NCBI GenBank assembly: GCA_963676395.1
Contig: OY781066.1
Location: 1,568,001-1,632,000, forward strand
Source of the DNA: a bacterium
Lineage (GTDB): Bacteria; Fidelibacterota; Fidelibacteria; Fidelibacterales; Fidelibacteraceae
Length of the DNA: 64,000 bases
Reading direction: 5' to 3'
The notes beneath the pieces are model-generated. The model was not told the origin of the DNA. It made no database searches and saw only the letters and a list, made by a program, of their open reading frames with translations. The position numbers and the translations under genes are program-made. Below, piece by piece: positions 49,631 to 63,934 of this stretch (position 1 is the first letter of the stretch; each line of letters opens with the position of its first letter).

Positions 49631-51433
49631 TTATTTAAATTCTTCCGGTTTAAATCCACGACTATAATGTGTATTGGTTTTGCTGATACGACCACCATAT
49701 TCCGGAAAATACTCCGTATTGTAGTTGATGCCGTTTGTACTTGTTTGTGTAGACCAATAACGCATGCCGGTAGTGTCTCCCGCCGCATTTGTTGTCCAGT
49801 TAATAAAAATAACAGAGTGCCCACTTCCGGAGGTTCGCCAAATTTGTACGAAATCACCTTTTTTCACATCTTTCATTTCATCTATTGTTTCACCTACACC
49901 GTAGTCGACCAAAGCGATCCCGGGTCCATCACCATTTGTGGATTGTACAAACCATTTTGAGATAAATGATGAAAAGTCCGATGCATTTATATTGTTTATA
50001 TCATTTCCCATATTCCTATCTGTGAGTAGTCGGTTCATTGCCCTGTACCATACTTCAAATGTTGCTCCACAGCAATAAGTACTATGAGATGAATCAGCGT
50101 TTGCTTTCGCTATGCGGGTGCCTTTGTAATAAAGGTCTCTACTGACACCATGATAACCGCTGACCCATGAGTATGGGTATCGTCCATCGCGATGATATTC
50201 TTCTAAAAGGTCAACAACATAATCGTTAAATGTCAAATCTTCATACCGGGAAGCGACAAGGTAGGCTGAATCCTGCCAGGTAACATTTCTTTCATCTGTG
50301 ATATTCATATGAACAAGTGTTGAAAATGTATCTTGAGTGGTTCCTTCCAGTGAAAGACCATTAAAGCCAAAGGATGCAGGTAGCTCATCAGTGGGACTAA
50401 CTTGAACATTGCCCTGCGAGTTTTCGATGAGCATGTTTTTTGCATGACTTTCACCTACATAGATCCTTCTTAGCTTTTTGGGCCAGATCTTGGCAGAGGG
50501 CTGGAGGTCAAAATTGATCCTGAAGCTGTTATACTTTGTACCGGAAGCTTCTTTTAGGCTAAAATCAGCATAGCTTCTATTTACATTGTGATATTGCATG
50601 ATGATCGTACTGTCATCATGAACATTCCAATCAAAATCAATTTGATTCGATGTGATCTCAATATCATTTTCAAAGTATATATCGATCGTATCATTTACAT
50701 TTTGTCCTTCAAGTACGGACAGATTTTCCGGTTGAGTCCTTAGGTATGGATGCACATGCACAGGGATGGTACCAAGATCTAAGGTAGTTGGAATTTCGCT
50801 ATAACTTTGTGTATATGTTTTGTTTTCAATATCACCGTCTTCAAACTTTAATTCCAGGGTACTATTGGTGGCTTTACTTAAATATATTGTTGCGGGTGAA
50901 CCCGAAGATATAAGGTTTGAAGATGAGAGGGTCATCTTTTTAATTTCGGTTTTACCGTTCATTTGTAAAACTGAAAAATATATACCTTGTGGACAAAGCT
51001 GAAGTTCATCGTTCAACCCATTCCAGATCATTGAGTATTCTCCCGCTGAAAAACGATCTTGAGCCAGTGTGCGAATCTTTCTCCCTCTGATATCATAGAT
51101 ACTAAGTTTTACTTCACCGGGATTATTTATTTTAAAGGGAACGGAAGTTTTTTTATTGAAAGGGTTTGGGTAATTGGCATCCAGCGTGAAATCCTCAACA
51201 ATATCATAGGGAGTATCGGCTGTTGCCGTTTCGCTTTTGGTAAAAACGCCATACTCATTTGTATAAAGAAGCGCCTTGACGCTTGAGTTAACATAGACTT
51301 TAACTCTAACATTATCACACTTTTCTATACCACCTCTACCATTTACAAGTTTTCCGGTTAAATTTGTCAGTTCCGCAAATACAAATGATGTCGTTAAGCA
51401 TAATATGATGAATAATAATTGTCTTTTTTTGAT
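49631..51433 (-). CDS. Secreted 600-aa protein: signal peptide, sorting/FlgD-like domain, Ig-like spacer, C-terminal NlpC/P60-like domain (inferred ATC start)
   Basis: Frame stays open 134 codons upstream of the tracked ATG 51031; reads IKKRQLLFIILCLTTSFVFA...NYPNPFNKKT...SIYDIRGRKIRTL; AAGGA 8 nt before ATC 51433; TYCCG and KGDFVQIWRTSGSGHSVIF. Confidence 0.8.
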   Translation of the reverse strand: MKKRQLLFIILCLTTSFVFAELTNLTGKLVNGRGGIEKCDNVRVKVYVNSSVKALLYTNEYGVFTKSETATADTPYDIVEDFTLDANYPNPFNKKTSVPFKINNPGEVKLSIYDIRGRKIRTLAQDRFSAGEYSMIWNGLNDELQLCPQGIYFSVLQMNGKTEIKKMTLSSSNLISSGSPATIYLSKATNSTLELKFEDGDIENKTYTQSYSEIPTTLDLGTIPVHVHPYLRTQPENLSVLEGQNVNDTIDIYFENDIEITSNQIDFDWNVHDDSTIIMQYHNVNRSYADFSLKEASGTKYNSFRINFDLQPSAKIWPKKLRRIYVGESHAKNMLIENSQGNVQVSPTDELPASFGFNGLSLEGTTQDTFSTLVHMNITDERNVTWQDSAYLVASRYEDLTFNDYVVDLLEEYHRDGRYPYSWVSGYHGVSRDLYYKGTRIAKANADSSHSTYCCGATFEVWYRAMNRLLTDRNMGNDINNINASDFSSFISKWFVQSTNGDGPGIALVDYGVGETIDEMKDVKKGDFVQIWRTSGSGHSVIFINWTTNAAGDTTGMRYWSTQTSTNGINYNTEYFPEYGGRISKTNTHYSRGFKPEEFK

Positions 51434-54462: not shown

Positions 54463-56286
54463 TTAAGCTTGATCATCTACTCCGTAAAGTGCCTCAATCT
54501 GCTTTGCATAAGCTTCTTCCACTTTACGACGACGAACTTTTAAGCTCGGAGTAAGTTGTTCGTTCTCGATAGTGAAAGGATCGCCGATGAGAAGGATTTT
54601 TTTAGATTTCTCATAGCGTGCCAAAGGTTCCTGAAATGCTTCCAATTCTGATTCAAAGAGTGCATAGACTTCAGGGTTACCAAGCAATGTATAATAGTTT
54701 GAATAAACGATCGAACGTTCCTGGGCCCAGGTTTCGAGATCTTCACGAGCCGGTACGATGAGAGCGATAGGATATTTACGGCGATCACCGACGATCACAA
54801 CTTGTTCGATGTATTTTGATTCAAGCATGACATTTTCGATTGGAGCCGGAGCAATGTTTTTACCGCCTGCCGTGACAATAATGTTTTTCTTGCGATCGGT
54901 GATCTTTAAGTAACCGTCTTCGTCAATTAAACCGATATCACCGGTATGGAACCAACCGTTTTCTTCGATAGCTTCTTTTGTTTCGATAGGATTTTTATAA
55001 TAGCCCTGCATGACACAAAGTCCACGAATAAGGATCTCTCCGTCATCGGCAATCATACACTCAACATCCGGGATCGGTTGTCCCACAAAACCGAATTTAA
55101 TACACCCGGGAGGGGTCAAGTGCGTTACCGGTGAGGTTTCGGTCAGACCAAAACCTTCGAGGATATTAACACCCGCAGCGGAAAAGAAAAGTCCAATATG
55201 ATCTGCTAGTGGTGCCCCACCCGAAACGGCATAGACAAATTCACCACCCAAGGCATTTTTGATCTTGTTTAAGACTAAAGCCTTTGCAATGGGGTATGAA
55301 ATGGCATATTTACCACGAGGTCTTTTTTCGAAGACCAGATATTTTTTGGCGGTTTCCAAACCGATCTTTTTTGCCCAGTTAAAGATATTTTTCTTGAGGT
55401 TTGAGCCTTCGGCTATGCCGGCATGTATCTTTGCGTAAACTTTTTCGAAAATTCTGGGGACCGAGAACATATAATGAGGTTTAACCTCTTTCAGATTATC
55501 GGCGATTTTATCGAGACTTTCGGCATAGTAAGTACCGGCTCCACAAAAATAGGAACCGTGTGATACAATGCGTTCAAATGAGTGACTTAAAGGCAAGAAT
55601 GACAAGAAACGAACATCCGGTTTGATTTTGATCACAGACATGGCTGATTGAGCATTCGTACAGATGTTGAAATGTGAAAGCATCACACCTTTGGGATTAC
55701 CTGTGGTTCCCGATGTGTAAATAAGTGTCCAAAGATCATCTTTTTTTGCTCTTTTTGCAAATGTTTCCAGTGTTTGTTTGCCTTTTGAAAGTAGTTCTTC
55801 ACCCTTCTTGAGAAGTTCATCGTATGTCAAAGTCCAATCATCTTCCAGAGCTTCACCATCTTTGATACGTACGGCAAACTTTAAATTTGGCAGATCTTTT
55901 TTTATTTCTTTGATCTTTGCCAATTGAACATCATCAGAAACGATCACGCCGGAGGTCTCGGAATTTTCCAATATATAATGGATCTGATTTGCCGGTAGAG
56001 TAGGGTAGATGGCAACGGAAGCAACACCCATATGGGCTGTAGCCAGATCTGTCATTGTCCATTCTTTGCAGTTTTCTGATAATATTGCAAATTTATCACC
56101 ATGCTTAAAGCCCAAAGCATGAAGCCCAAAGGTGATCTTTTCAACAATATCACGACTTTCTTTAAACGTCCATGATTTCCATTTTCCGTCTTTTTTCTCT
56201 GAGAAACGAACGAGATCTCCATATTTTTCTACGGAGTAGGCGAACATCGCCGGTATGGTCTTGATGTAATCTAATTTGTATTTCAT
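54463..56286 (-). CDS. Long-chain fatty acyl-CoA synthetase (copy 5)
   Basis: YTSGTTGNPKG, FLPLSH, GFGLTETSP, GWFHTGDIG, TDRKK, TPSLK. Confidence 0.92.
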   Translation of the reverse strand: MKYKLDYIKTIPAMFAYSVEKYGDLVRFSEKKDGKWKSWTFKESRDIVEKITFGLHALGFKHGDKFAILSENCKEWTMTDLATAHMGVASVAIYPTLPANQIHYILENSETSGVIVSDDVQLAKIKEIKKDLPNLKFAVRIKDGEALEDDWTLTYDELLKKGEELLSKGKQTLETFAKRAKKDDLWTLIYTSGTTGNPKGVMLSHFNICTNAQSAMSVIKIKPDVRFLSFLPLSHSFERIVSHGSYFCGAGTYYAESLDKIADNLKEVKPHYMFSVPRIFEKVYAKIHAGIAEGSNLKKNIFNWAKKIGLETAKKYLVFEKRPRGKYAISYPIAKALVLNKIKNALGGEFVYAVSGGAPLADHIGLFFSAAGVNILEGFGLTETSPVTHLTPPGCIKFGFVGQPIPDVECMIADDGEILIRGLCVMQGYYKNPIETKEAIEENGWFHTGDIGLIDEDGYLKITDRKKNIIVTAGGKNIAPAPIENVMLESKYIEQVVIVGDRRKYPIALIVPAREDLETWAQERSIVYSNYYTLLGNPEVYALFESELEAFQEPLARYEKSKKILLIGDPFTIENEQLTPSLKVRRRKVEEAYAKQIEALYGVDDQA

Positions 56287-56302
56287 AATTCCTTCCTTTT
56301 GC

Positions 56303-58117
56303 CTAGTTCTTGTAAAGCTCTTCTACTTCGAGGTCATATTTATTGATAACTTCGTTTCGTTTGATCTTCATGCTTGCTGTCAATTCTCCCGTTTCAATCG
56401 TGAAGGGTTGCGGCGCGATGAAAAAATACTTTATTTGTTCATATCTTGCAAGCTCATCTTGATGCTTGTCGAGTTCTTCCCGGATGAGTTTATCTACATC
56501 TTTTGACATTGCCATTTCCTGATAATTATCAAAACTAATGGGAGGAACTTGTTTTTCACCCCATTTTTGAATAATGTCGTATGCAGGCACAACAATGGCC
56601 ACAAGATACCGTCGTCTGTCTCCAATCACCACAGCTTGATCAATATATTTCGAAGTGCAAATTTCTTTTTCTACACCGGTAGGAGCGATATTTTTGCCTC
56701 CTGCGGTCACGATAAGATTTTTTTTGCGATCAGTGATCTTTAGAAAGCCTTCTTCATCGATAAAGCCGATATCACCTGTATGGAACCAACCATCTTTATC
56801 AATGGCTTCTGCAGTTTCTGTTGGACTTTTATAATATCCTTGGAATACATTGGGACCTTTGATTAGGATCTCGCCGTCATCCGCTATGTGAGCCTTAATA
56901 TCGGGAATGGCTTTTCCCACACAACCGAATTTTAAATGATCCTGATGATTTGCATGGGTACATGGACTGGTTTCCGTGAGCCCATAGCCTTCTTGCACAG
57001 AAATACCTGCCATGAGGAAGAATTCACCAATCTCAGGAGACAAAGGAGCTCCACCGCTGATACATCGAATGAAATCACCACCAAAAATTGCCGAGACCTT
57101 GTTAAAAACAAATCGTTTTGCCCAAGCATATTTTACAGCCAATGGACCTATCGGCTTTTTGTTGTAGATCAGGTATTTTGTAGCGACTCTGTGACCGATG
57201 CGTTGTGCCCAATTGAAGATCTCTTGCTTTGTTGTCGGCCCGGAAAGCACTTGTTCGATCACGGTAGCGTAGATCTTTTCAAGTAAGCGTGGTACAGTGG
57301 TCATGTGATGAGGTTTTACTTCTTTTAAATTTTCCGGGACTTTTGCAATGCTTTCGGCAAAATAGATCTCGGCACCAATCCACAATGTGAACAGGCAAGT
57401 TACCCTTTCGAAAGAGTGGCTTAGAGGTAAAAATGACAGCCATCGTCTGTTTGCAGGGAAATTAACATGTGCCTGGATCTGTTGGATATTGGCACAGACA
57501 TTAAATTGTGTTAGCAAAACACCTTTGGGGTCACCCGAAGTTCCTGAGGTATAAATAATACTCCAAAGATCATCATGTTTGACCTTTTGGGCATAGTCCA
57601 GTATACTTAGCTTAGATTCTTTTTGAGCTTTTAAACCGGCAGCGCAAAGGTCCTTATAGGTAATCACCCAATCTTCATCATGTTCTACATCGTCTAATAA
57701 GATGGCATATTCCATGTGCTTGAGTTTCGCTTTTAACTGGATAATTTTGTTAAGCTGTTCGCGGTTGCTAACAACAACAACCTTACATTCTGAATGATTT
57801 AGAATGTAGTTGATCTGTTTTGGAATGGATGTCTGGTACACGGGTACCGAGATGAAGTTAAAGTAGGTACAAGCCCAATCGAACAGACACCATTCCGGTC
57901 TGTTTTCAGACAAGATCCCAACCTTGTCTTTTTCTTTAACCCCAAGTGAAAGTAGGCCGAATCCAAGAATGGAAAACATGTCATAAGCATCCCCATAGCT
58001 TATGCTTTTCCATTCCCCCTTGGATTTGTAATTGTACAGCTTCCTCTCAGGCCCTTGGGCCAACGCTTCCTGAAATATCTCGGGCAGCGTTTTTGTGTAA
58101 TCAAGTGAGTATCTGAT
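56303..58117 (-). CDS. Long-chain fatty acyl-CoA synthetase (copy 4; inferred ATC start)
   Basis: YTSGTSGDPKG, GYGLTETSP, GWFHTGDIG; N-terminus IRYSLDYTKTLP after CACAGGAG-N6. Confidence 0.9.
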   Translation of the reverse strand: MRYSLDYTKTLPEIFQEALAQGPERKLYNYKSKGEWKSISYGDAYDMFSILGFGLLSLGVKEKDKVGILSENRPEWCLFDWACTYFNFISVPVYQTSIPKQINYILNHSECKVVVVSNREQLNKIIQLKAKLKHMEYAILLDDVEHDEDWVITYKDLCAAGLKAQKESKLSILDYAQKVKHDDLWSIIYTSGTSGDPKGVLLTQFNVCANIQQIQAHVNFPANRRWLSFLPLSHSFERVTCLFTLWIGAEIYFAESIAKVPENLKEVKPHHMTTVPRLLEKIYATVIEQVLSGPTTKQEIFNWAQRIGHRVATKYLIYNKKPIGPLAVKYAWAKRFVFNKVSAIFGGDFIRCISGGAPLSPEIGEFFLMAGISVQEGYGLTETSPCTHANHQDHLKFGCVGKAIPDIKAHIADDGEILIKGPNVFQGYYKSPTETAEAIDKDGWFHTGDIGFIDEEGFLKITDRKKNLIVTAGGKNIAPTGVEKEICTSKYIDQAVVIGDRRRYLVAIVVPAYDIIQKWGEKQVPPISFDNYQEMAMSKDVDKLIREELDKHQDELARYEQIKYFFIAPQPFTIETGELTASMKIKRNEVINKYDLEVEELYKN

Positions 58118-58144
58118 AATCTCCTCCTGTGTGTGTTTGGGTTA

Positions 58145-59959
58145 TCAGTTTTTGTACAAATTTTCTATTTCTTGACTATATATTTTTATGATCTCGTTTC
58201 GTTTTACTTTCATGCTGGCGGTTAATTCACCGGTTTCAATTGCAAAGGGTTGAGGAGCAATATAGAAGTATTTTATCTGCTCATAACGAGCCAGATCTTT
58301 TTGATTTTCATCAAGCTCCATCTGGATCATCGCTTTTACGGCTTCTGATTTAACAATGTCATCATAGCTATCGATCTTTACAATTGGCGTTTGTTTATTT
58401 GCCCATTTCTGTACGATTTCTAAGGCAGGAACAATAATGGCGACCAGATACTGGCGTCTATCACCAACGACAACGGCTTGTTCAATAAATTTTGATGCGC
58501 AAATTTCTCTCTCAACACCGGCCGGAGCGATATTTTTACCGCCGGCTGTGACGATGAGATTTTTTTTGCGATCTGTAATTTTCAAGGCACCGTCTTCATC
58601 GATAAAACCAATATCTCCTGTGTGGAACCACCCGTCTTTATCAATGGCTTCTTCTGTTTCTTCAGGTGATTTATAATAGCCCAACATTAGGTTTGGACCC
58701 TTCATGAGGATCTCACCATCTTCGGCGATCTTGGTTAATAGATCCGGTACAGCTTTGCCTACAGTTCCAAATTTTAGGTGATCCATTAAGTTTGAATGGG
58801 TTACCGGACTCATTTCCGTGAGGCCATAGCCTTCTTGCACAGAAATACCTGCCATGAGAAAAAATTCACCGATCTCGGGAGCCAAAGGGGCACCACCGGA
58901 GATACAACGATTGAATTCACCACCAAATACGGCTGCAATCTTGTTAAAGACCAGGCGTTTTGCCAGGCCGTATTTAAATGAGATAGGTCCAATGGGTTTT
59001 CTACCGTAGATAAGATATTTTTGAGAAACTCTATGACCAACACGTTGTGCCCAGTTGAAAACACCCTGTTTGAGCTTGGAATCTGCTAAGATCTGCTCAA
59101 TAATTCTGGCATAGATCTTTTCTAGCAGACGAGGAACGGTGGTCATAAAATTGGGTTTGACTTCCTTAAGGTTGTCCGCTACCTTTTCAATGCTTTCGGC
59201 AAAATAGATCTCGGCTCCCACCCAAAAGCTGAAAAAGGAAGTTGTTCTTTCAAAAGAATGGCTTAAAGGCAAGAAAGACAACCAGCGCTTATTCGCTTTG
59301 AATTTAGTGTGTGCCTGAGTTTGTTGAACATTGGCGGCCATATTGAATTGCGTGGTCATTACACCTTTAGGATCGCCCGAGGTGCCTGAGGTATACACAA
59401 TGCTCCAAAGATCATCGGGATGAACCTCGGCAGCGATTTCCTGCATGCTTGTTTTAGATTCTTCTTTGGCTGCTTTTCCCCGTTTTTTCAGGTCTTTGTA
59501 GGGTATGATCCATTTTTCTTTAGATTTTAGCGAGTCAAGCGTAATGGCATATTCCAAGAATTTTAACTCAGGCTTAAGGTCAATGATCTTTTGCAGCTGT
59601 TCTTGATTGCTGACGACCACGACTTTTGCTTCGGAGTGATTTAGAATGTATTTTACTTGCTTAGGTATAGATGTTTGATAAATAGGAACCGATACAAAAT
59701 TAAAGTGGATGCATGTCCAGTCAAAAAAGCACCATTCCGGGCGATTTTCTGATAGGATGGCAACTTTATCTTGTTTTTTAACACCTAATGAAAATAGACC
59801 AAATCCCAGGTCAGGAAGCTGGTCGTATGTTTCCTGATAAGTAAAGTTTTTCCATTCACCTTCGGATTTATAATTATAAAGTTTTCGGTTTGGACCTTTG
59901 CTCAATGCATCTGCATATAAAGCAGGCATTGTTTTAATGTAATCTAGTGCGTATCTGAT
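58145..59959 (-). CDS. Long-chain fatty acyl-CoA synthetase (copy 3; inferred ATC start)
   Basis: Same motifs; N-terminus IRYALDYIKTMP after CACAGGAG-N6. Confidence 0.9.
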   Translation of the reverse strand: MRYALDYIKTMPALYADALSKGPNRKLYNYKSEGEWKNFTYQETYDQLPDLGFGLFSLGVKKQDKVAILSENRPEWCFFDWTCIHFNFVSVPIYQTSIPKQVKYILNHSEAKVVVVSNQEQLQKIIDLKPELKFLEYAITLDSLKSKEKWIIPYKDLKKRGKAAKEESKTSMQEIAAEVHPDDLWSIVYTSGTSGDPKGVMTTQFNMAANVQQTQAHTKFKANKRWLSFLPLSHSFERTTSFFSFWVGAEIYFAESIEKVADNLKEVKPNFMTTVPRLLEKIYARIIEQILADSKLKQGVFNWAQRVGHRVSQKYLIYGRKPIGPISFKYGLAKRLVFNKIAAVFGGEFNRCISGGAPLAPEIGEFFLMAGISVQEGYGLTEMSPVTHSNLMDHLKFGTVGKAVPDLLTKIAEDGEILMKGPNLMLGYYKSPEETEEAIDKDGWFHTGDIGFIDEDGALKITDRKKNLIVTAGGKNIAPAGVEREICASKFIEQAVVVGDRRQYLVAIIVPALEIVQKWANKQTPIVKIDSYDDIVKSEAVKAMIQMELDENQKDLARYEQIKYFYIAPQPFAIETGELTASMKVKRNEIIKIYSQEIENLYKN

Positions 59960-59983
59960 AAGTTTCTCCTGTGTATTGAATTA

Positions 59984-61798
59984 TCAGTTATTATATAATT
60001 TTTTGATCTCTTGACTATATTGATTGATGATCACGTTTCGTTTGATCTTTAAACTTGCGGTCAGCTCACCTGTTTCAATGGTGAAGGGATGTGAAGCAAT
60101 ATGGAAATACTTAACCTGTTCATAGCGGGCAAGATCCTCTTGGTGTTTATCGAGTTCTTTCTGGAGCAGTTCTTTTACTTCTTGATATACCAACAGATCT
60201 TTGTATTCTTTAATTTTTAACTCGGGTGCCTCTTTTTTTGCCCATTTTTGTATTATCTCAAGTGAAGGCACGACAATGGCAACCAGGTATTTCCGCCTGT
60301 CACCGATCACAACAGCCTGTTCAATATATTTCGAAGAACAAATTTCTTTTTCGACGCCTGCCGGAGCGATGTTTTTTCCACCTGCCGTCACGATGAGATT
60401 TTTCTTTCGATCTGTGATCTTTAAAAAACCTTCCTGATCTATAAAACCGATATCACCGGTATGGAACCAACCATCTTGATCGATAGCTTTTTCGGTTTCT
60501 TCGGGATTGTTGTAGTAGCCTTTGGTCATATTGGGACCCTTCATCAGGATCTCACCATCATCGGTGATCTTGGTTTTTACATCGGGGTAAGCATGGCCGA
60601 CATAGCCAAATTTGATGTTATTCAAGGGGACACCGTGTGAGATGGGGCTCATTTCTGTCAGACCGTATCCTTCCTGAATTTGGATTCCCGCCATAAGGAA
60701 GAACTCACCGATCTCTGGTGCTAGGGGAGCTCCTCCGCATATACAACGACTGAATTCACCTCCAAAGATATCGGCAACTTTATTAAATACCAGTTTCTTT
60801 GCCATTGAAAATTTTATTGCCAGAGGTCCCAGAGGTTTATTGTTATATCTCAGGTATTTTTGTACCACGCGTTGACCGATATGCTGTGCCCAATTGAAAA
60901 TTTCCTGTTTGGCTTTTGGTCCGGCAAGAATGTTTTCGATCACGCCTGTATACACTTTTTCAAGAAGTCTGGGGACAGTTGTCATATAATGCGGTTTTAC
61001 TTCTTTTAGGTTATCCGGGACTTTTACAATGCTTTCTGCAAAGTAAAACTCAGCCCCGACCCAAGCCGCATATAGCGAACAATGTCTTTCAAAGCTATGT
61101 GATAAAGGCAAGAATGATAACCAACGTTTATGGTGCTTGAATTTTGTAAAATTTTCTGTTTGTTGGATATTAACTGCCATATTAAACTGAGAGATCATTA
61201 CACCTTTAGGATCACCGGATGTACCTGAAGTATAAATAATACTCCATAAATCGTCCGGCTTGATCTTGGCTGTGATTTCTTTCATTTTTACTTCGGAATG
61301 CAATTCATGGGAGCGCCCCAGCTCTTTCAATTCATCATAGTTCATAACCCAGCTTTCATCATAGTTTTTATTGTCAAGCATGACAACATATTTTAGATGC
61401 TTAAGCTTGTCTTTGATACTTACGATCTTGGTGAGTTGATCTCTGGTGCTGACGACAGCAACTTTAGCTTCAGAGTGATTGAGAATAAATTGTATTTGTT
61501 TTGGAATTGAGGTTTGGTATATAGGAACGGATACAAAATTAAAGTGGGAGCAAGTCCAATCAAAAAAACACCATTCGGGTGAATTTTCTGAGAGGATGGC
61601 TACCTTATCTTGTTTTTTTACACCAAGCGCCATCAGCCCAAAACCTAAGGAAGACAGCACATTCCAGAGATCCATATTGCTATGGCTTCTCCACTCACCG
61701 TCTTTTTTATAAAAATAAAGTTTACGATGTGCGTTTTTACTCAATGCATCAGCAAGAATACCGGGCATTGTTTTTATATAATCAATCGAATATCTGAT
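59984..61798 (-). CDS. Long-chain fatty acyl-CoA synthetase (copy 2; inferred ATC start)
   Basis: Same motifs; N-terminus IRYSIDYIKTMP after CACAGGAG-N6. Confidence 0.9.
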   Translation of the reverse strand: MRYSIDYIKTMPGILADALSKNAHRKLYFYKKDGEWRSHSNMDLWNVLSSLGFGLMALGVKKQDKVAILSENSPEWCFFDWTCSHFNFVSVPIYQTSIPKQIQFILNHSEAKVAVVSTRDQLTKIVSIKDKLKHLKYVVMLDNKNYDESWVMNYDELKELGRSHELHSEVKMKEITAKIKPDDLWSIIYTSGTSGDPKGVMISQFNMAVNIQQTENFTKFKHHKRWLSFLPLSHSFERHCSLYAAWVGAEFYFAESIVKVPDNLKEVKPHYMTTVPRLLEKVYTGVIENILAGPKAKQEIFNWAQHIGQRVVQKYLRYNNKPLGPLAIKFSMAKKLVFNKVADIFGGEFSRCICGGAPLAPEIGEFFLMAGIQIQEGYGLTEMSPISHGVPLNNIKFGYVGHAYPDVKTKITDDGEILMKGPNMTKGYYNNPEETEKAIDQDGWFHTGDIGFIDQEGFLKITDRKKNLIVTAGGKNIAPAGVEKEICSSKYIEQAVVIGDRRKYLVAIVVPSLEIIQKWAKKEAPELKIKEYKDLLVYQEVKELLQKELDKHQEDLARYEQVKYFHIASHPFTIETGELTASLKIKRNVIINQYSQEIKKLYNN

Positions 61799-61822
61799 TC
61801 TAAGCTCCTGTGCGTTCGCTTA

Positions 61823-63640
61823 TCATTTTTCGTACATTTTGTCAATATCGTCTTTGTATTTTTCAAGAACGACATTGCGTTTTAGCTTTAAGCTTGCAGT
61901 GAGTTCTCCACCTTCGATTGTGAATGGTTGAGGGGCGATAAAGAAGTATTTGATCTGTTCGTAACGAGCGAGATCCTGCTGATGAGCGTCAAGTTCATCT
62001 TTAAGAAGATTTTTAACAATAACTGAATTTGCAACATCTTCATAGTTCTTGAATTCGATAGGTGGATCCTGCATTTTACCCCATTTAATAAACATATCAA
62101 CGGCAGGAACGATAATTGTAGTAAGGTACTTGCGTCTGTCACCCAGAACAAGAGCCGATTCAACGAATTTAGAAGCGGAAATTTCTCTTTCAACCGCTGC
62201 CGGAGCGATATTTTTACCACCGGCGGTTACGATAAGGTTTTTCTTTCTGTCGGTGATCTTTAAATAACCATCTTCATCAACAAAGCCGATATCACCGGTA
62301 TGGAACCAACCATCTTGATCGATAGCTTCGGCAGTTTCTTCGGGATTCTTATAATATTTTTCCATACGATTCGGGCCTTTGAGCAGAATTTCACCATCTT
62401 CGGCGATACGTGTTTCAACATCGGGAAGTGCTGGGCCGACCGTACCCCATTTTGTTTCAAGATGAGGTGGGTTTACGTGAGTGACGGGTGACATTTCCGT
62501 TAAGCCGTAGCCCTCAATAATATCAATACCGGCAGCTGTGAAGAATTCACCGACTTCTGCAGATAAGGGAGCACCGCCGCTGACGCATTGGATGAATTCT
62601 CCACCAAAAACACCTGCGATTTTTTTAAATACCAGTGCTTTTGAAATTGAATAGCGAAGAGCGACCAAACCTTTTGGCTTTAGGTTTTTTGAAAGGAATT
62701 TTGATACGACCTCATGAGCGGTACGTTGCGCTTGAGCAAAAATGTTTTGTTTAATGTGAGAGCCTAACGCAATTTGTTCTTGTACGCCGGCATATACTTT
62801 TTCAAGCAGGCGCGGTACGGTGGTCATGTATTGAGGTTTTACCTCTTTTAAATTCTCGGCTACTTTGGCAATACTTTCAGCAAAAAATATTTCGCCACCA
62901 ATCCATGTTGTAAATAAAGATGTTACGCGTTCAAAAGAATGCGACAAAGGTAAGAAGGATAGCCAGCGTTTATTGGGTTTAAATCCAATACCGCCTTGTG
63001 ATTGCTGAACATTTGCTGCCATATTGAACTGTGAAATCATAACACCCTTCGGGTCGCCAGAAGTACCTGAAGTATAAATGATAGAAAATAAATCTTCGGG
63101 TTTGATTTCTTTTATGATTTTTGTAAGAGTGGTCTTTGATGAAGCTTTCTTTTCTTCGCCTTTGGCGAGAAGTTCATCCCAGGTGATGATCCAATCTTCT
63201 TTGAGATCAGTTTTGTCTAACATGACCATGTATTTAAGGTCTTTAAGATTATCTTTGATCTCAATCACTTTTTCAGCTTGAGCTTTGCTGGAAGCGATCA
63301 CAACCTTTGATTCCGAGTGATTTAAGATATAATCAACCTGTTTGGGGATCGAGGTCATGTAAACAGGTACCGAAACAAAACCGAAGTGTGAACATGTCCA
63401 GTCGGTAATGTTCCATTCAGGTCGGTTTTCGGAGAGTATCGCGACTTTATCGCCTTTTTTCAATCCAAGTGCATGCAAACCGAAACCGGCTTTTTCTAGC
63501 GTGTTGTAAACGTCTTGGTAAGTGTAACTGATCCATGTATCATCCTTCTTGACATTAAGAAGTTTGCGATCTGTGCCACCCGTCATAGCGTCGGCAAAGA
63601 TAGCAGGCATGGTTTGGATATAATCCATTTGATAGTTCAT
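61823..63640 (-). CDS. Long-chain fatty acyl-CoA synthetase (copy 1)
   Basis: MNYQMDYIQTMP after CACAGGAG-N6-ATG; YTSGTSGDPKG, GYGLTEMSP, GWFHTGDIG. Confidence 0.92.
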   Translation of the reverse strand: MNYQMDYIQTMPAIFADAMTGGTDRKLLNVKKDDTWISYTYQDVYNTLEKAGFGLHALGLKKGDKVAILSENRPEWNITDWTCSHFGFVSVPVYMTSIPKQVDYILNHSESKVVIASSKAQAEKVIEIKDNLKDLKYMVMLDKTDLKEDWIITWDELLAKGEEKKASSKTTLTKIIKEIKPEDLFSIIYTSGTSGDPKGVMISQFNMAANVQQSQGGIGFKPNKRWLSFLPLSHSFERVTSLFTTWIGGEIFFAESIAKVAENLKEVKPQYMTTVPRLLEKVYAGVQEQIALGSHIKQNIFAQAQRTAHEVVSKFLSKNLKPKGLVALRYSISKALVFKKIAGVFGGEFIQCVSGGAPLSAEVGEFFTAAGIDIIEGYGLTEMSPVTHVNPPHLETKWGTVGPALPDVETRIAEDGEILLKGPNRMEKYYKNPEETAEAIDQDGWFHTGDIGFVDEDGYLKITDRKKNLIVTAGGKNIAPAAVEREISASKFVESALVLGDRRKYLTTIIVPAVDMFIKWGKMQDPPIEFKNYEDVANSVIVKNLLKDELDAHQQDLARYEQIKYFFIAPQPFTIEGGELTASLKLKRNVVLEKYKDDIDKMYEK

Positions 63641-63934
63641 GTGTGCCTCCTGTGTGTGTAGCCTGTTAAAGTATAAATTTCAAAAGAAAATGCAAAGGAA
63701 AAACAAGAGTGTGAGATACAAGACCTCGGATATGATACTTAAGGAGTTGGTGGCTTAGTTGTCGGTAAATAGTAGAAATTATATTCATCTTATATCTCTA
63801 GGGTAGCTCAAAGATTGTTTGACTGTGTACATCAATATTCTAAATTTTGGGGTCTTTTGTCAAAGGGATACTAAACTGAAAAAAGAGTATTAGTATGTCG
63901 AAATAATAAAAAAGTAAAAAATGAGATAAAATTA

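Follow-up and report, generated by a model that had tools for sequence, protein, structure and literature searches.

ATC as the probable translation start of the three internal acyl-CoA synthetase genes in a tandem array of a Candidatus Neomarinimicrobiota genome

We analysed a 64,000-nucleotide stretch of DNA (hereafter the window; G000:C1:1568001-1632000) from an uncultured, marine-type bacterium of Candidatus Neomarinimicrobiota, whose genome (G000) is assembled as one contig of 2.34 Mb with 38% G+C. Five genes for AMP-forming acyl-coenzyme A (acyl-CoA) synthetases, each 604-607 codons long, follow one another head to tail on the minus strand of the window, at 54463-63640; they are numbered here copies 1 to 5 from the first gene of the array to the last. 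From the sequence and from comparison across the genus, we consider it probable (about 75%) that the internal copies 2, 3 and 4 begin translation at ATC (AUC in the mRNA), 6 nt behind a strong Shine-Dalgarno (SD) sequence. A weak near-cognate AUH start that gene callers miss is of a known kind and involves no new mechanism. Particular to this case, as far as the sequences indicate, are the propagation of ATC via tandem paralogues within one operon and the apparent ATC start of infC in the same genome.

Copy 1 (61823..63640, minus strand, 605 amino acids), the first gene of the array, starts with ATG at 63640 behind CACAGGAGG. The last gene, copy 5 (54463..56286, minus strand, 607 amino acids), is a divergent paralogue with 46-48% identity to copy 2, and its ATG start lies behind AAGGAAGGA. 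Between them, on the same strand, are copy 2 (59984..61798), copy 3 (58145..59959) and copy 4 (56303..58117), which open with ATC AGA TAY at 61798, 59959 and 58117, respectively, the ATC codons occupying 61796-61798, 59957-59959 and 58115-58117. Translation from these codons gives the N-termini IRYSIDYIKTMP, IRYALDYIKTMP and IRYSLDYTKTLP, to be compared with MNYQMDYIQTMP and MKYKLDYIKTIP in the ATG-led copies, and a length of 604 amino acids for each of the three proteins, in agreement with the lengths stated in the original prediction. For copies 2, 3 and 4, the products from this contig in the public protein collection are 594, 594 and 586 amino acids long, and the deposited gene calls thus start downstream of ATC, namely at ATG 61768, ATG 59929 and TTG 58063.

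The pattern CACAGGAG-N6-AT[CG] occurred four times in the window, in every case on the minus strand and at the head of one of copies 1-4, compared with 0.03 occurrences expected from 100 shuffles. The letters, the SD-N6-ATC/ATG arrangement and the N-terminal peptides were read just as the original prediction had described them. The SD sequences lie at 61805..61812 for copy 2, at 59966..59973 for copy 3 and, in the form CACAGGAG(G), at 58124..58131 for copy 4, all on the minus strand and all 6 nt before ATC. This spacing falls at the mode of the SD-led ATG genes of the genome, in which 27, 89, 81, 60, 32, 22 and 15 genes have spacings of 4 to 10 nt, respectively, with a mode of 5-7 nt. The downstream starts had been said to have no adjacent SD, and this was also seen: the SD is 36 nt before the ATG at codon 11 (Met-11) of copies 2 and 3, codon 11 of copy 4 is CTG, as had been noted, and the TTG used as the public start of copy 4 is 18 codons in and without an SD. 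The ATC codons of copies 2-4 follow the TGA TAA of the upstream gene by 24-27 nt (7-8 codons), and no ATG, GTG or TTG occurs between that in-frame TGA TAA and ATC in any of the three. In the whole genome CACAGGAG was found 29 times, about a dozen of them ahead of an ATG. The 3' end of the 16S rRNA reads GGATCACCTCCTTTCT and contains the canonical anti-SD CCUCC.

Whether ATC occurs at this position in relatives was examined by collecting every N-terminus of the family (n = 64) from all 22 Neomarinimicrobiota genomes of the genus, G000 included. The aligned first codon was ATG in 44 N-termini, ATC in 15, TTG in 3 (G005, G008 and G018) and GTG in 2 (G014 and G031), and (C)AGGAG preceded it in every case. 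ATC was present in 11 of the 22 genomes, with three copies in G000, two each in G011 and G032, and one each in G002, G003, G004, G006, G007, G013, G015 and G017; the search for orthologues recommended in the original prediction thus found the same codon in 10 other assemblies. G002 carries near-identical tandem duplicates, one of which has ATG and the other ATC. The switching of the aligned codon among ATG, GTG, TTG and ATC at constant SD spacing indicates that it is a start codon. Met-11, on the other hand, is conserved as such in the ATG-led copies of the copy-1 type and is Leu, Ile or Val in other copies, which marks it as an internal residue.

The codons following ATC bear the signature of translated sequence. 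The pooled ratio of nonsynonymous to synonymous differences per site (pN/pS) was 0.17 for codons 2-10 versus 0.20 for the remainder of the gene, the substitutions in codons 2-10 were mostly third-position or conservative, and no stop, frame break or indel was found in these codons among the 15 ATC copies. Taken with the codon and SD of the genus orthologues, this purifying selection gives good support to the proposal that ATC is the initiation codon. Among the three ATC copies of G000, synonymous sites are saturated (pS 0.77-0.79) and the nonsynonymous distance (dN) is 0.21-0.26, which indicates that the middle copies are old and functional genes. ATC has been retained despite this divergence, as the original prediction had maintained.

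We scanned the genome for SD-led ATC, ATT, ATA and CTG codons near the heads of open reading frames (ORFs), and convincing cases were obtained only for the three synthetase genes and for one gene encoding a secreted protein; the remaining matches resemble SD-like sites within genes or the shadow of an ATG close by. The suggested genome-wide count thus brought out copies 2-4 and one further gene, and a genome-wide habit of ATC starts was rejected, there being four convincing scan cases only, with infC found separately. The secreted-protein gene (49631..51433, minus strand, 600 amino acids) has its ATC at 51431-51433 and opens with GAAGGA-N7-ATC AAA AAA AGA, encoding the signal-peptide-like N-terminus IKKRQLLFIILCLTTSFVFA. 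Its next ATG, GTG or TTG is 134 codons downstream, and a call limited to these codons would begin at ATG 51031 and yield 466 amino acids. The aligned codon is ATG in all seven syntenic orthologues of the genus, so that ATC in this gene appears to be a recent ATG-to-ATC change in G000.

The original prediction had also pointed to infC and to the initiator tRNA as places to look for unusual residues. The tRNA has a 1:72 mismatch and a GGG/CCC anticodon stem. In infC, outside the window at about G000:C1 1894062-1894094 (L135 1462-1494), the sequence AAGGAG-CTGAT-ATC TCA CGT CAA ATG was found, which has an SD-led ATC. In the 21 genomes of the genus in which it could be read, the aligned codon was ATC in 10 and ATT in 11. 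The Arg codon two codons after this ATY varies only synonymously, and an in-frame TAA stands three codons upstream of ATY in four genomes. Judged from these sequences, infC of this genome likely starts at ATC, a non-canonical start like that of E. coli infC.

The observations that weigh against our reading are best considered along with the alternatives that they favour. One such alternative is that the public gene calls are correct, that copies 2 and 3 are translated from the downstream ATG and copy 4 from the TTG, and that the ATC-led decapeptide is an untranslated leader. Gene callers did choose these starts, and strong SD sequences precede only about 15% of the genes of the genome (326 SD-led ATG), so that the absence of an SD before Met-11 leaves some initiation there possible in copies 2 and 3. 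In an AlphaFold model of copy 2 with a mean predicted local distance difference test (pLDDT) score of 83, residues 1-10 form a coil (pLDDT 82) and a helix starts from residue 11; the model hence does not show that the first ten residues are structurally required, which is not decisive. Relatives of solved structure in the PDB are silent on the N-terminus, none of them aligning before residue 38. The downstream starts are nevertheless at odds with the low pN/pS of codons 2-10 and their mostly third-position changes, with the lack of any stop or indel there in 15 copies, with an SD placed 6 nt from ATC versus 36 nt from Met-11, and with the orthologues that have ATG, TTG or GTG at the position of ATC. 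Copy 4, moreover, has CTG as codon 11 and an SD-less TTG 18 codons in, and we regard the public starts as highly unlikely. An internal start would not be needed at all if stop-codon read-through joined the copies into a polyprotein, and the reading frames would allow it, since the upstream gene and the one after it share a frame at all three junctions in G000 and at 12 of the genus's 15 ATC junctions. However, two stops in a row (TGA TAA or TAA TAG) end the upstream gene at most junctions, 3 of the 15 (in G007, G017 and one in G032) are out of frame with the genes intact, and the SD is conserved in every junction. Read-through fusion was rejected on the basis of the tandem stops and the out-of-frame junctions, and its probability is next to nil. 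Just as improbable is that the ATC codons reflect an assembly or sequencing error, or that the internal copies no longer function as genes. An independent contig set, the Logan contigs of run X1, the sole run with this stretch and possibly the sample from which the genome was assembled, covered 56987-58853, 58829-60476 and 60460-62315 with 0 differing letters, thereby reproducing all three ATC codons and leading us to reject assembly error, which the original prediction had asked to be excluded by read mapping. The same codon in 10 other assemblies, a dN far below the synonymous distance (dS) and intact catalytic motifs also speak against error or gene death.

The serious rival accepts ATC as the start and takes it for a tolerated relic, with no regulatory device and no coupling to initiation factor 3 (IF3): one ATG/TTG-to-ATC change would have been fixed in a redundant paralogue of which little enzyme is needed. 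The origin of the ATC copies was traced in a tree of 54 complete copies, made by a quick search with support from the Shimodaira-Hasegawa-like approximate likelihood ratio test (SH-aLRT) only; 10 cut or broken copies, including 2 with ATC, 2 with TTG and 1 with GTG, were excluded. All ATC copies of the tree fell into one clade with support of 100, which comprises 13 ATC copies and the ATG duplicate of G002. The TTG/GTG copies are sister to this clade (support 98), and the next outward are standalone ATG copies. By this tree, ATC arose once and spread by duplication, with one reversion to ATG in G002, and the three ATC copies of G000 inherited it and do not represent three independent events. 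A single origin with one reversion is what a relic would leave. The retention of ATC is not significantly beyond chance either: in the 13 complete ATC copies, which are 64-95% identical, a single codon was kept in 2 of 19 invariant-Ile columns, the start being one of them, and in 11 of 253 invariant degenerate columns. The chance of retention, estimated empirically from sequences that are kin, is about 0.05-0.1, which is suggestive only. Together with the single origin it counts against our reading and makes the argument for selection weaker than the original prediction had implied, even though retention itself stands. Also on this side of the balance, the middle paralogue is interrupted in G005 (L036), G006 (L037) and G031 (L051), where the frame counted from the start stays open for 312, 427 and 18 codons, respectively; either the paralogue is dispensable or decaying in some lineages, or these assemblies contain indel errors. 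In G031 copy 1 is interrupted as well. The lone change to ATC in the unrelated secreted-protein gene suggests that such changes are tolerated. Finally, the ATG four codons downstream of ATY in infC is conserved in 21 of 21 genomes, which leaves the ATY start of that gene likely but not proven.

Other features are less readily explained by a relic. In the middle-paralogue clade, 20 of 21 members start with ATC, TTG or GTG, the lone ATG being that of the G002 duplicate, whereas ATG is the start of the standalone sister copies and of the genes at either end of the array. ATT or ATA was found at the start codon in none of the 15 ATC-type copies, though both ATC and ATT occur at the corresponding codon of infC across the genus. 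This avoidance of ATG in the middle clade and the absence of ATT and ATA suggest selection more tellingly than the retention count does, without amounting to proof. On balance we hold the relic to be a considerable possibility, if a somewhat doubtful one.

If copies 2-4 do start at ATC, the comparison suggests how they would be expressed. The initiator tRNA would read the near-cognate AUC 6 nt past the SD. A canonical start would have given way to AUC a single time, in the ancestor of the genus's 'middle' paralogue, and subsequent duplications would have passed AUC on. Given the weakness of AUC as a start, the middle isozymes are expected in only a small fraction of the amounts of copies 1 and 5, whose ATG-led genes would be translated well from the same mRNA. 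The position of AUC 24-27 nt past the preceding stop makes translational coupling probable, in that ribosomes having just terminated there would help initiation at AUC. More speculatively, since infC is apparently AUC-started in the same genome, the output of the AUC genes may follow the stringency of IF3. Such IF3 coupling of the array is plausible, with circumstantial support from the AAGGAG-N5-ATC of infC and from its ATC and ATT codons in the genus.

The junctions between the genes show a further feature, which may be a lead and is not a finding. The tandem stops TGA TAA of copy 1 (61820..61825), copy 2 (59981..59986) and copy 3 (58142..58147), all on the minus strand, are complementary to the start region of the gene that follows. 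At the head of copy 2 the complementarity consists of TGAT/ATCA and AAGC/GCTT, and at the next two junctions CTGATAA is complementary to TTATCAG spanning the ATC of copy 3 and of copy 4. Pairing of CTGATAA with TTATCAG would place the SD in a loop (window 61796-61826, 59955-59987 and 58113-58148, minus strand). An alignment of 14 ATC junctions had 86.7% of its cells paired in register, compared with 22-31% when slid by 1-3 columns (73% at -3), and the number of compensatory pairs in these junctions was 0. The mean duplex energy was -5.2 kcal/mol for ATC junctions, -1.1 kcal/mol for ATG rows and -3.5 to -4.8 kcal/mol for TTG/GTG junctions; whole-hairpin z-scores at the junctions ranged from -1.18 to +0.83 and were not significant. 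The idea that base pairing to the G in the preceding TGA keeps the C of ATC in place was considered and rejected as a general explanation, this pair being present in 8 of the 14 junctions and replaced by A-C in 6. The TTG/GTG relatives have a different complementary pair, GTTCA with TGAGC.

A bolder reading treats AUC as a switch. In it infC and the internal synthetases would form a small IF3-sensing translational regulon, in which CUGAUAA/UUAUCAG hides AUC until a ribosome terminates on the complementarity. We think this rather unlikely. If it were true, the proportions of the isozymes translated from a single mRNA would depend on both upstream translation and IF3 stringency, and could shift, for example, with growth rate or in the cold.

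The identity of the array proteins was assessed by domain searches. Copy 2 matched the Pfam family AMP-binding (PF00501) with 224 bits (cut-off 29.9; E 3.6e-66), and its C-terminal domain matched AMP-binding_C_3 (PF23562) with 39.8 bits (cut-off 20.8). The array copies resemble in these two domains the long-chain-type AMP-forming acyl-CoA synthetases of the '600-aa FadD' type. The best NCBIfam match of all five copies was FadD11 (NF038343), with 304-357 bits against a curated cut-off of 950; with scores so far under the cut-off the five copies differ from FadD11 and are not its equivalogs. The translations contain YTSGTSGDPKG, GYGLTE, TGD and a C-terminal lysine motif, which we take to be the characteristic motifs of such enzymes, and the invariant motifs are intact in all 54 complete family copies of the genus set.

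The intergenic gaps in the array measure 16-27 nt and leave room for a promoter only upstream of copy 1, so the five synthetase genes are inferred to share one transcript; a look for RNA runs covering the stretch returned none. A promoter-like site, TTGACA-18-AATATT, lies at 63834..63863 on the minus strand, about 195 nt upstream of copy 1, and was recognized by its match to the consensus alone. In most genomes of the genus a CTTATTGTATTTTAA-like motif is conserved ahead of the SD of copy 1, at a distance of about 20-35 nt (for example L035 320-345, L036 340-365 and L045 333-358), and is a candidate promoter or operator element for the operon. The motif is not obvious in G000, where the sequence at about 63655-63690 of the window differs.

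Two further observations concern other genes. The secreted protein has a weak Por_Secre_tail/FlgD_ig match at residues 88-167, and a domain of this kind of about 100 residues (residues 36-177 of the secreted protein) was found at 55 places in G000 and at 27-63 places per relative. By these counts the genus has a great abundance of this surface or secretion module. A repeated ORF of 309 codons is present in at least 4 copies, at G000:C1 1650849, 1651810 and 1999054 on the plus strand and 1790566 on the minus strand (also L188 250-1176), two of them 961 nt apart. It encodes an N-terminal zinc-ribbon-like CPKCGG...CNDCHHRF motif, for which all Pfam zinc-ribbon matches were sub-threshold. Its first 95 codons are without ATG, GTG or TTG; ATA opens the frame right after TAA, and an out-of-frame ATG GCT AAA AAG occurs 8 nt into it. 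The ORF has the appearance of a mobile-element gene, translated either from ATA or by way of a +1 shift.

Initiation at ATC would correct the N-termini of the three enzymes described here and, in 10 other genomes of the genus, of no fewer than 12 orthologous copies, all of them proteins that standard gene callers, limited to ATG, GTG and TTG, shorten by 10-18 residues. It would add a well-supported natural AUC start, conserved across a genus and passed on by gene duplication, to the short list of documented near-cognate starts in bacteria, and it offers a testable case in which the strength of start codons sets unequal output of paralogues within one operon.

Literature searches on natural bacterial AUC starts yielded mainly work with E. 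coli reporters and on eukaryotic and mitochondrial systems, and we found no publication that describes AUC starts for Marinimicrobia or for genes of acyl-CoA synthetases, subscription journals lying outside the search. The dsg gene of Myxococcus xanthus, which encodes an IF3 homologue, starts at AUC. With E. coli reporters, according to one preprint, AUC, AUU, AUA and CUG initiate at 1-2% of the level of AUG, and mass spectrometry showed that the AUC-initiated reporter protein carries an N-terminal Met (bioRxiv 10.1101/063800). The same preprint names infC and pcnB, both with AUU, as the only confirmed non-canonical starts in E. coli (bioRxiv 10.1101/063800).

Among known systems, E. coli infC and pcnB resemble the array genes in that each is a conserved gene whose only start is an AUH codon with a normal SD ahead of it, and the low, IF3-sensitive translation described for such starts is the expected effect for the array too (10.1101/063800, PMC4447247). 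They differ in having AUU, whereas the array has AUC, in metabolic-enzyme paralogues of one operon and propagated by tandem duplication. E. coli infC is autoregulated through the discrimination of IF3 against non-canonical starts, and the IF3 dependence of the array is putative; infC of G000 itself has the same SD-led ATC architecture as copies 2-4. Another parallel is ebpA of Enterococcus faecalis, in which a conserved ATT start is reported to attenuate expression of the EbpA pilus. Like the array genes it has a rare AUH start conserved in its lineage and is annotated from a downstream ATG, and its weak start adjusts the output of a single operon component (PMC4447247). It differs in that the effect was shown experimentally, with another codon in another organism, and in that no paralogue array is involved. 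Streptomyces sigR, whose GTC start is reported to be repressed by IF3, likewise has a non-canonical start serving as an IF3-mediated control point outside infC (PMC5472188). There, however, the codon is GTC and the product is a regulator rather than an enzyme, and the corresponding link of the synthetase array to IF3 is circumstantial.

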